14,519 bases of DNA from the UHGV virus genome UHGV-0203503. The stretch is one strand, 5' to 3'. The translations under genes and the position numbers were made by a program. A model generated the notes under the pieces. It was not told where the DNA came from. It did not search any database and saw only the letters and a list, made by a program, of their open reading frames with translations. Positions within the stretch are counted from its first letter, which is position 1. Every line of letters starts with the position of its first letter. This DNA comes from a virus. Shown in pieces: positions 2,099 through 7,736 of the stretch.

Positions 2099-3027
2099 GC
2101 TGATTGCCATGCCTCTCGCTGCTTATCAAGTCTTTCCTGCGATGACTCAAGAATAACTGGCTTTCCATCCATTAGCAGTGTTGGTACTTGTGCGCAATGA
2201 CAATTCCTTCGGTTGGCAACTTCACTATAGAACGTGTCGATTTCTTCTGGCGTGTAAAACCTCCCGTGTCTCGCCGCGTGAGTATGGCGGGTCGTGCGCA
2301 TTAATGCCGATTGCCACAGCATTACCGTCTCAATACCTAACTCTTCGCGCGCTTCAATGACTTCTCTCCTGTTTGCCTGCCGCAGCGTTCCGGTGATTTC
2401 TGTTTGCGCCAACTGTTTTGCGTAACTGTGAGACACATCGATACGCTTAACGATGTCGGCTTCAACATCACGAGGATTAGCGCCTCGAGCAATGCCTTCC
2501 ATAATGACAGATGCCAGTTGCTGACGGGAATAATCACTCAATCCGCGCCAGTCTGAATATCCTTGCGTGTACGCTAGCTGGAGTCGATTCAGATAAGGCT
2601 CACTGTAGAGTATCGCGGCAATCGGCCTCTGCTCGGCATAAACCGGAGACAGGCTTGATAGCTCTGAGTTAGCCTTCTGCGTGCCAGCATGATGCGCATC
2701 ACCAATGAACACATTAGCCCACATCCTGCCGTGACCGAAGTCGTCACCTTCAAGCAGAATCTCGTCAATCAGCGCCTGCAACTCATCCATGAAAGTGGCA
2801 GCCCGCGCACTACTAAAATCGTAGAAATACAGACCGCTTGATTCTGCGTTGGTCTGGCTGCTCGGAATGGTGCGAAACAACTCAAGCGCACGAGTCCTGA
2901 GTTGTTTGTATTTGCGCGTTATCACCTTATCCATCTTCGACAGTCGCGTTGCAGCGCCTAACGGGTCGGTCAGGCTCTGCGATATGCGCGGTTGTGGCAA
3001 CCTTGCATTAAACCGGAGTATTTTCAT
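2077..3027 (-). CDS. Phage head morphogenesis / minor capsid protein (Mu F-like, SPP1 gp7 family), ~316 aa
   Basis: Lies immediately downstream of the portal gene on the same strand; C-terminal region ([18 protein letters not shown]...) resembles Mu-F-like proteins from memory. Start set at internal ATG 3027 (GGAAGA RBS) because the track ORF start 3111 lies inside the portal gene. Confidence 0.6.
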
Positions 3028-4420
3028 TTTCGTCTTCCGGCGGCGTGTCTTCGCGATAATTTTCGTCCAGCTCAATCGGCTCCATACCCACCATGCCGCG
3101 AGCCTCATCAACAGTCAGCAATGCAGATTGACCAGCATCAAAGAACGACTTGTTCGCAGTTGCGAGCTTAGACAGCAATTCGGCCTTATCCAGCTCTGAT
3201 GGAGCCAGCAGGTCATCCCACTTAACCTTGTAGCCGTTTGCCGGGGCTTTATCGACAATGCCGAACTGAATCATGCGCTCAACGAACATTGAGATGACGT
3301 AATCAACCCATGTTTCGCGGCGCTGTTTTGCGGTCATCGCCTCCTGCATCTTGTCCTCGTCGCTCGCAAGGCGTCCGGTTTGCTGGCCAAAAATAACGGT
3401 GAACGGAAGTGCCATTGATGCGGCGAACTGGTTGGCAGCAACTTCCCATGTTGGTTTCGGGTCGGCTGGTGTCACAGCGAGAACTTTTGCATCCGCGCCC
3501 ATTGTGAACATGGCTGCGTCAATCCCGGAGTTCAGCGCATCAATGTTCTCATTCATGATGTCGGTAAGCTCTTCAATATCGACACCCATTGACTGAGCTA
3601 GGCTTGCTGGCGTTACGTTATCCTTCGTGTAGTTAACCGCCAGTTGGCGGCTAGCATTCTTCAGGAAGCCCTCTGCGGAGCTACCGGAAACCTTAGCCAT
3701 GTCGATAAGGCTGTTGTAGCCAGCACGCAGCATCGGGATGCCACTGAACATACTACCGTCAAAACTACCCTCAGCCAGAATGATGATGCGGTCTGGGTGA
3801 ATCTGTACGGAACGCTCAGGCTTGCCATTGCTGTCGAAATCTTCCACGGCGCTTTCCTGGTATTCGTACATCTCAGGCATACCGTAGTCTTCGCTGGTTT
3901 CGTCGTTATTCCACGCGCTGACGCGGAGCTGCTCCTCCCATACAGGAATAAAGCGAACGATGGATTTATCTTTAATGCGGCGGGTTTTGGTGATGTCTAC
4001 AGGCTCACTCCACTGCTTGCCGTCGCGGATTTGCAGGATAACGGCGGAATAGCGGTTGATGGCGTTGCGCTTGTCAGCCTCCTTGATGAACGGGTAGGCG
4101 CGCTTCATCATGCCGTTGATGGACAACTCCCACGACGTTGAGTTCTTATCATCCTCTCCATCTTCAACCACTTCAGGGTATTTCTGCCAGCATTTATTAA
4201 TAATGCGGTTAATACCAGCGGCGGCAGCTGGGTGTCGTTCATAGGCATAACGGAACATCTCAGCGGTAATTTCCTGCGGGTAGCCCAGCTCCTTCCACAT
4301 GAACTCACGCTTCTGGTCAAGATTCTTCCCGCCAGCACAAAGCCTCTGCTGCTGAATTGCCCGGTTATTGTTCGCTACGCGGTCGCGTATATAGGCGTTT
4401 AATGCATCAATTTTTGACAT
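3008..4420 (-). CDS. Phage portal protein, 470 aa
   Basis: 470-aa ORF between terminase large subunit and Mu-F-like gene in the conserved order; acidic C-terminus. Assignment is by position and size, not by a recognised motif. Confidence 0.6.
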
Positions 4421-4431
4421 ATGTCACCAAT

Positions 4432-4458
4432 AAAAAATCCCATCACGTTGGATGGGAT
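4432..4458 (-). terminator. Intrinsic terminator (minus strand) between the small-gene cassette and the portal gene
   Basis: Stem ATCCCATC (4437-4444) / GATGGGAT (4451-4458), 6-nt loop, followed on the minus strand by TTTTT (complement of A-run 4432-4436). Sits 11 nt upstream of the portal ATG. Confidence 0.5.
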
Positions 4459-4493
4459 TATAACACGAGCTTGCAGTGGCTATGGTTGATGGC

Positions 4494-4724
4494 TTATTCT
4501 CTCCGTGATGGTATTGCAATCATCGGTTGCGTTTGTCTTTGCATGATAGATAATAGCTCGCCCTTGTAATGTTCTGTAATTTCATTTTGCCCTTTCATGT
4601 AAATCAAGATGGCCTCCTGTTCGGTGACAATTCCTTGCTTAAACAAGGTTATTACTTTCCTTGCCATAGTATCGCAAAGAGATAATTCTTCAAGGTATTG
4701 AATCGGCGTTTCGCAGTTATCCAT
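4494..4724 (-). CDS. Hypothetical protein, 76 aa
   Basis: ATG 4724-4722 overlaps upstream stop (TGATG); track ORF 4494-4727 begins at GTG. Confidence 0.4.
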   Translation of the reverse strand: MDNCETPIQYLEELSLCDTMARKVITLFKQGIVTEQEAILIYMKGQNEITEHYKGELLSIMQRQTQPMIAIPSRRE

Positions 4725-4909
4725 CACTCCACCTTTTCCAGTTTATCAATAACAATATCGAACCCTTGGGATTGGAATATGGCGGCATTCTCGTTCGCCA
4801 TAAATACTTCGAAAGCATGAACTGCGTTTGACGCAGCTATCACCATAGACATTTTTGCGGCAACTTCACCACCACCAAGCACTTCAGCATGAATAAAATA
4901 AACGCTCAT
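4724..4909 (-). CDS. Hypothetical protein, 61 aa
   Basis: ATG 4909-4907 overlaps upstream stop (TGATG); translationally coupled chain. Confidence 0.4.
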   Translation of the reverse strand: MSVYFIHAEVLGGGEVAAKMSMVIAASNAVHAFEVFMANENAAIFQSQGFDIVIDKLEKVE

Positions 4910-5097
4910 CACTCAATCTCCTCACCATTAACCCAGCGTTGCAGGACTTCGATTAGCTGCGCGGCTTGCTGTTTGTCGATGCCAATAGAGTTAACATCAT
5001 CGCCTTCACGGAATGAAGTAAGCATAATGATAGGGTAATCACCAAAACTATGACTAACTTGCAGTTCATAGCAATTTTTTGTTTCACCAATAATCAT
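4909..5097 (-). CDS. Hypothetical protein, 62 aa
   Basis: ATG 5097-5095 preceded by GAGG at 7 nt spacing, inside the repeated element TTGAGGTGATGTGATG. Confidence 0.4.
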   Translation of the reverse strand: MIIGETKNCYELQVSHSFGDYPIIMLTSFREGDDVNSIGIDKQQAAQLIEVLQRWVNGEEIE

Positions 5098-5152
5098 CAC
5101 ATCACCTCAACAAAGTTCACCATCAGTTACCACCAACAACTTCTGCCATAAT

Positions 5153-5356
5153 TTATTTCTGAACATGATTAATCCACCATGCGGCAATTGCTGAGAAAAT
5201 CCACAAGCCGATAACAAGCCTGAAAACCTGCCAATTCAGTATGTCATCAATACTTGGCGCCTCCCATCTAATCAGCCAGATAAGCGGGAAAGCAAGCGCC
5301 AGTGCAATGGTGTACTTAATACCAATAAGAAGAAAATCTCTTAGGAAGCCTCTCAT
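5153..5356 (-). CDS. Small membrane protein, 67 aa, two predicted transmembrane helices
   Basis: Hydrophobic stretches IKYTIALALAFPLIWLI and VFRLVIGLWIFSAIAAWWI; ATG 5356 preceded by the same GAGGTGATGTG element. Confidence 0.45.
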   Translation of the reverse strand: MRGFLRDFLLIGIKYTIALALAFPLIWLIRWEAPSIDDILNWQVFRLVIGLWIFSAIAAWWINHVQK

Positions 5357-5365
5357 CACATCACC

Positions 5366-5560
5366 TCAACCAATCGGAAACCACTTATCAATGACATCAT
5401 GGAATTTTTGCATAACCTTTGCCTGCCAAAATTCAAGCCACTCAAATAAATTTCTTGCACCAGAAAAGAAAACCCACAATAACCACACAGGAACAAAAAA
5501 TGGCAGTAAAGCAATCCTTCCGATCTTGCTTCTGTTGCTCATCCTGCTTATCTTAAGCAT
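5366..5560 (-). CDS. Small membrane protein, 64 aa, one predicted transmembrane helix
   Basis: Hydrophobic stretch IALLPFFVPVWLLWVFF; ATG 5560 directly after upstream stop, preceded by GAGGGTGATGTG. Confidence 0.45.
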   Translation of the reverse strand: MLKISRMSNRSKIGRIALLPFFVPVWLLWVFFSGARNLFEWLEFWQAKVMQKFHDVIDKWFPIG

Positions 5561-5564
5561 CACA

Positions 5565-5771
5565 TCACCCTCTCAAAAAATCATTCTTGCAGCAGATACC
5601 CTTGTACCCGCGCTTCTCCTGCAGATTAACGAAAACATCATCCAGAACGCGCAGCAGGAAATCCTCGTCAATATCATACCGACGGCAAATCACCTCATCA
5701 GGTACACCAGCCCGCGCCAGTGAATAAACCTGCTCTTTTTCCTCCTGTGTGAATCCTGCATAGCTGCGCAT
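5565..5771 (-). CDS. Hypothetical protein, 68 aa (first gene of the minus cassette)
   Basis: ATG 5771 with GGAG at 8 nt spacing; ~24 nt downstream of predicted promoter P2b. Confidence 0.45.
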   Translation of the reverse strand: MRSYAGFTQEEKEQVYSLARAGVPDEVICRRYDIDEDFLLRVLDDVFVNLQEKRGYKGICCKNDFLRG

Positions 5772-5801
5772 AGTGATATCTCCGATAAGCCTGATGTAGA
5801 T

Positions 5802-5830
5802 ATACTATGCGCTCGGTGTAGATTGGTCAA
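5802..5830 (-). promoter_or_regulatory. sigma70-like promoter P2b for the minus six-gene cassette
   Basis: On the minus strand: -35 TTGACC (complement of 5825-5830), 17-nt spacer, -10 TAGTAT (complement of 5802-5807), then ATCTACATCA as in P1. Confidence 0.4.
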
Positions 5831-5868
5831 GTGTGGCGATGAGGATTTATCGACATTAACAGTAAATG

Positions 5869-5897
5869 TTGACGTAGATATGTTGGTGACGTAGAAT
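5869..5897 (+). promoter_or_regulatory. Near-consensus sigma70 promoter P2 for the plus two-gene cassette
   Basis: -35 TTGACG 5869-5874, exactly 17 nt spacer, -10 TAGAAT 5892-5897; divergent from P2b. Confidence 0.5.
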
Positions 5898-5930
5898 CAT
5901 CTTATCGAAAAGAGATTAAGGAACAAGAGA

Positions 5931-6086
5931 ATGTTTGAGACTAAAAAAGAATGCGAAGCGTATATTGCCGAAACTTATGGTGCTGACTACGTTAAATTTG
6001 GCATCGTTACCGCCCAGAAAGTCGGCCCAACAATCGCCAAGATGCTTGGTATTAAAGAAGGTTACTACCCATCAAATGCCTACTAA
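5931..6086 (+). CDS. Small hypothetical protein, 51 aa (below ORF-track cutoff)
   Basis: ATG 5931 preceded by AAGGAA (5918-5923); translation MFETKKECEAYIAETYGADYVKFGIVTAQKVGPTIAKMLGIKEGYYPSNAY; alternative reading to the TTG-initiated 117-aa track ORF. Confidence 0.4.
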   Translation: MFETKKECEAYIAETYGADYVKFGIVTAQKVGPTIAKMLGIKEGYYPSNAY

Positions 6087-6090
6087 TTAC

Positions 6091-6288
6091 ATGCCGAGAT
6101 GCCTTCGTGAAATACCGAAGGCAAAAGTGAAGCCAAGAAATCAAGCAATAAAAGAGGCAAAGATTGAGGCTTTCAATATTGCCATTTCGATAATAAAAGA
6201 GAGATGCAGAGATGAAAAGTCTGAACGCGTTAAATCAAACATGTATGCAGCTGTGAGTGATATATCAAGATTGAGAGATGAGCTTTAA
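6091..6288 (+). CDS. Small hypothetical protein, 65 aa
   Basis: ATG 6091 in the frame of track ORF 5935-6288; basic, helix-like sequence (MPRCLREIPKAKVKPRNQAIKEAKIEAF...); RBS weak, start uncertain (an in-frame ATG at 6076 is also possible). Confidence 0.3.
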   Translation: MPRCLREIPKAKVKPRNQAIKEAKIEAFNIAISIIKERCRDEKSERVKSNMYAAVSDISRLRDEL

Positions 6289-6317
6289 GCCCTCATTTGA
6301 GGGCTTTATTTTTATCG
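6288..6317 (+). terminator. Intrinsic terminator of the plus cassette, lying 7 nt from the terL stop
   Basis: Stem AGCCCTC (6288-6294) / GAGGGCT (6299-6305), loop ATTT, followed by TTATTTTTAT on plus; no T-tract on the minus side. Confidence 0.55.
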
Positions 6318-7736
6318 CCTGCGTCGGATTAGCATTCCGCTTCCGCGCTGGACGATGTGGTCATTTAGTGCGTAACGAACGGCATCCCAGAAGTGGTTAA
6401 ATGCATCGACAATATCAGTCAGCACATTCCCCGTCAGCTTATCGACCTTGTAGCTGTACATCGTTGCTTCATTCTGCATTTCCTTGCATCGCTCGTGGAT
6501 GATGATGCTGTCACATCCGCGCAGCCACGTGACGCCATCCTCAACGCTTCCCGGCCATTTAGTGCACGGGTGAATATCGAATCCAGAGCGCTTGATGTGA
6601 CTGATAGTCTCAGGTCGAGCGCAGTCTGCATACCATCGCGCGCGCTTAGCCATAGGGAATGATTGCTCCATCGCAGCTGGCGTATCGGTAATCTCAAGGC
6701 CAACCTTGCCATACTCTCGATTAATATAAATGTTGCGCCGTCCATCTGGTAATTCTTCGATATAAACCTCAACCATCGCGGTAGGATCGGTGGAAAACCC
6801 GAAGTCCATCCCGAAGTATGGGCCATGCCATTCAGGTTTGACTTCAAAGTCATCAACGCGCCATTTGCCACCGAATACCTGCTCGTCGCTTCGCTTGTTA
6901 AAGGCTCCCATCCAAATCCAGCGGTAACGGTCGTAATCAGTTCGTTTCATTTGCTCCATGGCGGATGGCAGCGGTGTATCCCAGAACCACGGGTTGTCTG
7001 AATAGTTACATTCGATAATCAGAATTTCATCATTTTCGAATATTCCATCAACCATCTGTGAGTGATAAGGAGCAATCCAGTTTTTCCATGTCGGGTCTGT
7101 TTCCTTGTTGGGGTTAAATGAGCACCACAGCTCGGAATTGGCGGCGCGGATGGTAGGCACGAGAATGTCCCAGCTTGTCTGGCTGACGTTCTCCGCTTCC
7201 TCTACCCAACCGACGGTAATGCCAGCAAAGCCCTTAACGGTTGTCTGATTGCGATACAACCCCTTAAAGCGAAACTTTGCTTTGGTCTTCTTGTGTGTTA
7301 TCTCGTTGTTGATAACGCGAAACTCAGCTGACTCGCCTTTGCGGGCTATCTCATCAACAAGCTCCTGATAGCTTGAGTCTTCAATGGATTGCTGAATCTC
7401 ACGGAAGCAGGCAAAGCGGTCGGGTCGAAACCTTGCGCGCTCAGTAAGGATGGTGATAATTGTTCTCGTTTTCCCTGACCCACGCCCACCATAGACAAAC
7501 TTGAAACGTTTGGGGTATAGCAGACGTTCCAGCTTTGCCGGAATGAGGTGGTCGGCATGAGTGGTTGCATTGGTCACATCATCAACGCCAGTAGCGGTCA
7601 TCCTTAACCGCTTGATGACGTTTTTCTGCATGTCGCAGATACCAAAGATAGCTGATTCTGCGACATCTGTCATTGCATCATCAATCTGCGCTTCCAGCTT
7701 TTCTATTGCCAGCGCGGAGAGGCGTTTACGAGCCAT
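6312..7736 (-). CDS. terL: Phage terminase large subunit, ~474 aa
   Basis: Walker A VYGGRGSGKT, Walker B-like ITVGWVEEAE, nuclease-domain-like GMDFGFSTDP. Start set at ATG 7736 (GGAG RBS, 11-nt overlap with the terS stop) rather than track start 7805. Confidence 0.88.
   Translation of the reverse strand: MARKRLSALAIEKLEAQIDDAMTDVAESAIFGICDMQKNVIKRLRMTATGVDDVTNATTHADHLIPAKLERLLYPKRFKFVYGGRGSGKTRTIITILTERARFRPDRFACFREIQQSIEDSSYQELVDEIARKGESAEFRVINNEITHKKTKAKFRFKGLYRNQTTVKGFAGITVGWVEEAENVSQTSWDILVPTIRAANSELWCSFNPNKETDPTWKNWIAPYHSQMVDGIFENDEILIIECNYSDNPWFWDTPLPSAMEQMKRTDYDRYRWIWMGAFNKRSDEQVFGGKWRVDDFEVKPEWHGPYFGMDFGFSTDPTAMVEVYIEELPDGRRNIYINREYGKVGLEITDTPAAMEQSFPMAKRARWYADCARPETISHIKRSGFDIHPCTKWPGSVEDGVTWLRGCDSIIIHERCKEMQNEATMYSYKVDKLTGNVLTDIVDAFNHFWDAVRYALNDHIVQRGSGMLIRRRR

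Follow-up and report, generated by a model that had tools for sequence, protein, structure and literature searches.

The locus analysed here lies in a window of 14,519 nt (one strand of the viral genome UHGV-0203503) and separates the gene of the terminase large subunit, terL, from that of the portal protein. The gap between them extends from 4421 to 6311 and was measured at 1,891 bp, in agreement with the 1.9 kb given by an earlier, sequence-only reading of the window. It contains eight genes, two divergent sigma70-like promoters and two terminators: six tightly packed genes are on the minus strand, coding for 68, 64, 67, 62, 61 and 76 aa in that order, and two are on the plus strand. Its composition (computed GC of 0.416) differs from that of both neighbours (0.500 for terL and 0.519 for portal). 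The features are listed below, from terL to portal.

6312-7736, minus strand: terL, terminase large subunit (Pfam Terminase_3, 3.4e-37, and Terminase_3C)
6287-6316, plus strand: predicted intrinsic terminator, hairpin 6287-6306 followed by TATTTTTATC (T-run, -13.4 kcal/mol)
5846-6311: antisense module (terminator, gH, gG and P2), behaving as one insertion/deletion unit
6076-6288, plus strand: gH, 70 aa, basic, helical, variable cargo, phrog_5305 (PHROGs)
5931-6086, plus strand: gG, 51 aa, variable cargo, phrog_8009 (PHROGs)
5869-5897, plus strand: predicted promoter P2, TTGACG-17-TAGAAT (TTGACGTAGA-N-GACGTAGAAT), from the promoter scan, predicted start at about 5904
5802-5830, minus strand: predicted promoter P2b, TTGACC-17-TAGTAT, from the promoter scan, near-invariant upstream of gA (33/33 loci)
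5793-5800, 5815-5822, 5871-5878 and 5888-5895, minus strand: four copies of the 8-mer TCTACRYC (motif count)
5565-5771, minus strand: gA, 68 aa, acidic (pI 5.0), first minus-strand gene (ORF list and conservation)
5366-5560, minus strand: gB, 64 aa, variable cargo with a single predicted transmembrane segment (hydropathy)
5153-5356, minus strand: gC, 67 aa, variable cargo with two predicted transmembrane segments (hydropathy)
5107-5166, minus strand: remnant ORF of 19 codons (MFRNKLWQKLLVVTDGELC), in the 55-nt spacer between gC and gD
4909-5097, minus strand: gD, 62 aa, acidic, phrog_13627, often paired with gE (PHROGs, clustering)
4724-4909, minus strand: gE, 61 aa, phrog_26739, most frequent cargo family (clustering)
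4494-4724, minus strand: gF, 76 aa, rare cargo (ORF list)
4457-4465, minus strand: extended -10 element TGTTATAAT, putative promoter of portal, with transcription expected to begin at A4449/A4448, within the loop of the hairpin
4429-4459, minus strand: array terminator, stem 4459-4451/4444-4436, then a T-run (folding)
3008-4420, minus strand: portal gene (Pfam Phage_portal_3, 5.3e-21)

The anatomy proposed in the sequence-only reading was recovered. The promoter scan found both divergent promoters with their 17-nt spacers; the six small minus-strand ORFs are followed by a hairpin (4459-4436) with a T-run, and the two plus-strand genes, gG and gH, by their own (6287-6306), also with a T-run. 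The two small membrane proteins are gB, with one hydrophobic window, and gC, with two (19-residue windows, Kyte-Doolittle value of at least 1.6). The start codon of terL is likely the ATG at 7736: the listed ORF begins at TTG 7805 and relatives align from residue 24. An Rfam scan of the window returned no RNA family, and no description of the terL-portal locus was found in the literature on the Skatevirus/Macdonaldcampvirus/Swiduovirus group.

Comparison with related loci

The comparison set consisted of 33 related loci carrying a homologous terminase; four more, with a non-homologous Terminase_6 terminase, were counted apart. The claim that terL and portal are normally adjacent, and were separated here by an insertion, was to be checked by alignment with relatives, and for this lineage it failed on that check: the two genes are 535-2,390 bp apart in 33/33 loci and adjacent in none. 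Even the four loci with the unrelated terminase have retained gA and portal, and the layout is the same, P2b included, in the distant relative L039. The identities of terL and portal are uncoupled from one locus to another (e.g. 97/68% and 61/96%), which makes the gap a recombination boundary. Within it, variation is confined to the genes downstream of gA and to the plus-strand module in its entirety. On this comparison the gap is a permanent accessory-gene slot in the whole group of small enterobacterial siphophages (Skatevirus-like), and not a recent insertion.

The plus-strand part of the slot is the one that comes and goes as a block. The gG and gH genes are found together in 8/33 loci. 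Seven relatives lack the module exactly, their terL stop codon lying 16 nt from the -35 box of P2b, and the same site holds other genes in 18 relatives. A direct repeat, GATAAA(T), marks either end of the module (6316-6310 and 5851-5845): the long forms read ...GGCGATAA/AAATAAAGCCC...GTYGATAAATCY and the short forms ...GGCGATAAATCYGCATCACC. The hairpin that follows terL is found in every locus with the module. Read on the minus strand it has no T-run and would probably stop terL transcripts inefficiently, so that these probably enter the region.

The same anatomy had been interpreted as two self-contained morons inserted between once-adjacent terL and portal genes, with portal expression dependent on read-through or antitermination. 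Morons were reportedly defined, by Juhala and Hendrix in 2000, as promoter-gene-terminator units located between conserved genes. The promoter-genes-terminator layout and the low GC content match such an interpretation, predicted promoters and terminators flanking both gG-gH (P2 and 6287-6316) and gA-gF (P2b and 4459-4429); terL transcripts probably running in, for want of a minus-strand T-run, speak in the same direction. The moron layout stands for the plus-strand cassette, a true presence/absence unit lacking in 7 loci, which judging by its borders behaves like a moron. It does not stand for the minus-strand unit, which had been taken as self-contained, since gA and P2b are present in every locus and gA is under strong purifying selection. 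With terL and portal adjacent in no relative, no antiterminator gene or site found, and a conserved promoter-like element on the pre-portal hairpin and before other structural blocks (see below), we consider the two-moron explanation unlikely.

In the minus-strand array, gA and gB are 4 nt apart, gB and gC 9 nt, and the gD/gE and gE/gF pairs overlap by one base (TGATG). Across the 33 gaps we counted 43 ORF clusters, in a combinatorial gene order, and the junction sequence is constant whichever gene comes next. Junction GAAAAGGTGGAGTGATG was seen 14 times, followed by at least 7 different gene clusters, and all three exact copies of GTGATGTGATG are at a junction. The swap points are these conserved stop/start junctions, plus the GATAAA direct repeat for the plus-strand module. 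The individual genes differ in their distribution. Homologues of gB were found by tblastn in 5/33 loci (4 in ORF cluster c11), and relatives of gC occur within the same phage group and, at ~35% identity, in Klebsiella siphophages. For gF, a tblastn search of 50,697 phage records gave no match. Metagenomes supplied six homologues, 91-95% conserved, and the one contig examined (L041) places gF at the same position. The remnant between gC and gD derives from a cargo gene of cluster c7 (135-152 aa), which lost its interior by an in-frame deletion but kept its start and stop.

Searches with the eight island proteins gave only sub-threshold noise against Pfam (E up to 1), only families of unassigned function in PHROGs and nothing in PADLOC, which covers defence systems only. 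The predicted fold of gE, beta-beta-alpha-alpha-beta with a pLDDT of 95, gives no function. The cargo of relatives includes a HigA-like HTH_3 protein, a PAPS-reductase-family (PAPS_reduct) protein and an AP2-domain, homing-endonuclease-like protein; their annotation suggests that the first two are plausible counter-defence cargo. We infer that the cargo may serve to take over the host, to exclude other phages or to counter host defences; the analysis yielded nothing that speaks for or against exclusion, anti-defence or toxin roles. Another possibility is that the variable genes are mostly decaying or selfish passengers, gathered at a module boundary where recombination is frequent, and of no adaptive use to the phage. 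The uncoupled terL and portal identities, the deletion remnant, the homing-endonuclease-like gene and the small number of cargo genes with an assigned function are consistent with this. It appears improbable in view of the intact, translationally coupled cargo frames, of the 19 invariant columns in the alignment of 30 gE sequences, of the conservation of gF in independent metagenomes and of the plausible counter-defence proteins in relatives.

The core gene gA and its predicted promoter

At the head of the array, gA was found in all loci at 89-100% amino acid identity, even where terL is at 61% and portal at 68%. Its nucleotide identity is 90-96% and the changes are nearly all synonymous (e.g. 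14 synonymous versus 0 non-synonymous). By these counts, gA and P2b are the core of the slot, an invariant unit under strong purifying selection. A constraint at the DNA level, such as a pac site, was considered for gA and rejected, because the gene has gathered many nucleotide changes, nearly every one of them synonymous.

The predicted structure of gA is, at the level of the fold only, a sigma-region-4/LuxR-like helix-turn-helix. No Pfam or profile similarity to helix-turn-helix families was found, the distant members of the gA family have no Pfam domain, and a Foldseek comparison with the PDB returned nothing significant (best E of 0.28). A hhalign comparison with an approximate sequence of region 4 of Escherichia coli sigma70 gave a probability of 0.2%. 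The family is small: a word-indexed search returned 16 proteins, and the number was still only 16 when 1.84 billion representatives were searched exhaustively with a profile. The putative recognition helix starts with D-E-D in all sequences, an uncommon beginning for a helix that binds DNA. From the modelled fold we infer that gA may be a transcription factor, acting either on promoters bearing the TCTACRYC motif or on RNA polymerase.

Its position could also suggest an accessory role in packaging or head assembly, as a DNA-recognition partner of the terminase or as a head-completion protein, in which case its constancy would be owed to the structural genes beside it. There is a precedent for a small gene between terminase and portal, gpW of lambda, which has an alpha/beta fold and is expressed late with the head genes; what was found for gA did not place it among gpW-like head-completion proteins. 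To our knowledge, at 68 aa and all-helical, it is also shorter than known small terminases. Moreover, gA remains 97-100% identical in spite of a terL that is 61% identical or non-homologous and of a portal that is 68% identical; its constancy while these genes are exchanged argues against tight co-evolution with either. Its promoter is of the early -35/-10 type, of the same family as those preceding small non-structural genes. A packaging role is, on this evidence, quite unlikely, and a transcriptional one is preferred.

The activity and timing of the promoters are predictions from sequence. The window contains 30 promoter-like sites for 25.2 expected, so that a match to the consensus does not by itself exceed chance expectation; P2b is retained as a promoter because it is conserved in 33/33 loci. 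It would start transcription around 5797-5795 and drive gA and the cargo array. P2 is a member of a lineage-wide family, the same design being found at 10634-10606 (minus strand) and in intergenic regions of phage Bas80. The TCTACRYC motif is well above chance, with 9 copies in the window for 0.93 expected (0/200 shuffles reach 9); in Bas80, 11/20 copies are intergenic (5% of the genome, p = 5e-10). It may be either a part of the promoter core, with GAYGTAGAWT as the -10 region, or an operator. At P2b the motif occurs twice in the same orientation, at a distance of 22 nt, and does not form an inverted repeat. Two classes of predicted promoter can be told apart in this phage: the -35/-10 class lies ahead of small accessory genes and the TGn/-10 class, which has no -35, ahead of structural genes.

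Predicted terminator and promoter ahead of portal

The array hairpin (4459-4436) folds at -11.6 kcal/mol alone and at -15.5 kcal/mol within a 55-nt stretch. Among the loci there are four variants of its stem, all of which pair (-10.5 to -14.4 kcal/mol). These were folded one by one; a MAFFT alignment of the region was discarded for pair counting, the stem variants being out of register. The motif TGnTATAAT is found 37-46 nt upstream of the portal ATG in 33/33 loci, adjoining the 5' base of the hairpin, whose 5' arm begins inside the -10 hexamer. For RNA begun at +7 the folding energy is only -0.4 to -2.8 kcal/mol: transcripts that start in the hairpin loop, without its 5' arm, cannot form the terminator hairpin.

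In this window alone TGnTATAAT is not above chance (87/200 shuffles have at least one copy), and the TATAAT part may owe some of its constancy to being the A-rich foot of the hairpin. Bas80 has 6 copies for 1.75 expected (0/300 simulations reach 6), four of them 30-37 nt before structural-gene blocks. The terS-like gene is also preceded by a terminator and then by a TGn-type element. Promoters of the TGn/-10 type do not need the -35 contact (PMC2988021). Portal transcription thus seems to restart from its own promoter, set inside the terminator of the slot. The dependence on read-through or antitermination proposed earlier need not be invoked, because TGnTATAAT abuts the hairpin in 33/33 loci.

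The hairpin might have another main role: it could stabilise the 3' end of an RNA, be a site of processing or control the translation of portal. The variant present in L030 and L037 lends itself to the last: it has a Shine-Dalgarno-like GAGGG in the 3' arm, 6 nt before the ATG, which read-through RNA would mask. In most variants the Shine-Dalgarno sequence (GGTGA) is outside the hairpin. Intrinsic terminators canonically consist of a stem and then 5-7 T, as here, and the stem sequence varies while pairing and T-run are kept. We therefore hold such roles to be very improbable and keep to an insulator function.

A layered model and its known counterparts

We propose that the slot has four layers (core unit, cargo array, antisense module and insulator), a model to which we give a probability of about 0.6. 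The comparison shows the anatomy and its conservation, the swapping of genes and the selection on gA; the promoters' activity and timing, and what gA and the cargo do, are what the model proposes. P2b and gA form the fixed unit, in which gA would act as a transcription factor on TCTACRYC promoters or on RNA polymerase. Behind them, the coupled small genes of the cargo array are exchanged by recombination at Shine-Dalgarno/stop/start junctions (GAGxGTGAKGTGATG). The antisense module, P2-gG-gH, is gained or lost between the GATAAA direct repeats just after terL. Finally, the array terminator would stop upstream transcripts, and the overlapping extended -10 would start portal/MuF transcripts afresh in the loop.

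Compared with the morons of lambdoid and HK97-like phages, the P2-gG-gH-terminator unit is alike in its predicted own promoter and terminator, its lower GC content and its precise presence or absence. Unlike the hosts of those morons, the present phage group appears virulent, Bas80 being annotated without integrase or repressor, so that prophage expression (lysogenic conversion) is probably irrelevant here. With the universal gA at its head, the minus-strand unit is not a moron as a whole; the slot is never empty.

In the hyperplastic regions of T4-like phages, genes are shuffled via composite promoter/terminator motifs, or PeSLs (PMC2839356, PMC4122927). Common to both are small variable ORFs between conserved blocks, exchange at short motifs and a composite terminator/promoter; unrelated sequences are here joined through the stop/start junctions and the GATAAA repeats. 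The present island differs in having only two promoters and two terminators rather than a promoter and stem-loop for each ORF, in swap points that are mostly translational junctions within one operon, and in a composite made of a terminator physically overlapping the extended -10 of a structural gene.

Anti-CRISPR operons with Aca regulators (PMC9410906, PMC8633003) also combine a strong promoter, small variable genes whose fold is not recognised, a conserved small gene of helix-turn-helix type (for gA, a prediction at fold level) and a repeated motif over the promoter, in an operon amid morphogenesis genes. Here, however, the conserved gene is first and not last, gA has no sequence similarity to helix-turn-helix families, and the P2b motif copies are direct, so that no inverted-repeat operator was found. 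None of the eight window proteins had a known Acr or anti-defence homologue in Pfam or PHROGs.

The two promoter classes are also the arrangement expected for a switch like that of T4 AsiA, TGn/-10 promoters being immune to the loss of the -35 contact (PMC2988021). No AsiA homologue was found, and gA resembles, at fold level, sigma region 4 and not AsiA. As a long shot, gA could be a free-standing mimic of sigma region 4 that has lost its DNA-contact residues, made from an early -35/-10 promoter, competing with region 4 of sigma70, for example for the beta-flap or a region-4 partner, and silencing all -35-dependent promoters, those of the host and the early ones of the phage, its own included. 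If so, it would be an early-to-late switch, leaving on the TGnTATAAT promoters before terS, portal, capsid and tail, i.e. an AsiA-like outcome by another mechanism, and this would account for gA being the most conserved gene of the region. The split between -35/-10 and TGn/-10 promoters, together with a universal protein of predicted sigma-region-4-like fold, provides a testable hypothesis of temporal control in a group whose regulation is unstudied.

Under the four-layer model, the slot is a compact cassette system: promoter and first gene are fixed, further ORFs plug in at a standard junction, and an insulator closes the array. Nesting a promoter within a terminator would uncouple accessory expression from that of essential structural genes, which corrects the antitermination idea. 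The slot could be mined for host-takeover and counter-defence genes in more than 100 sequenced phages of Salmonella, E. coli, Shigella and Klebsiella. Several members of the group (BASEL Bas77-81) are obtainable for experiments.

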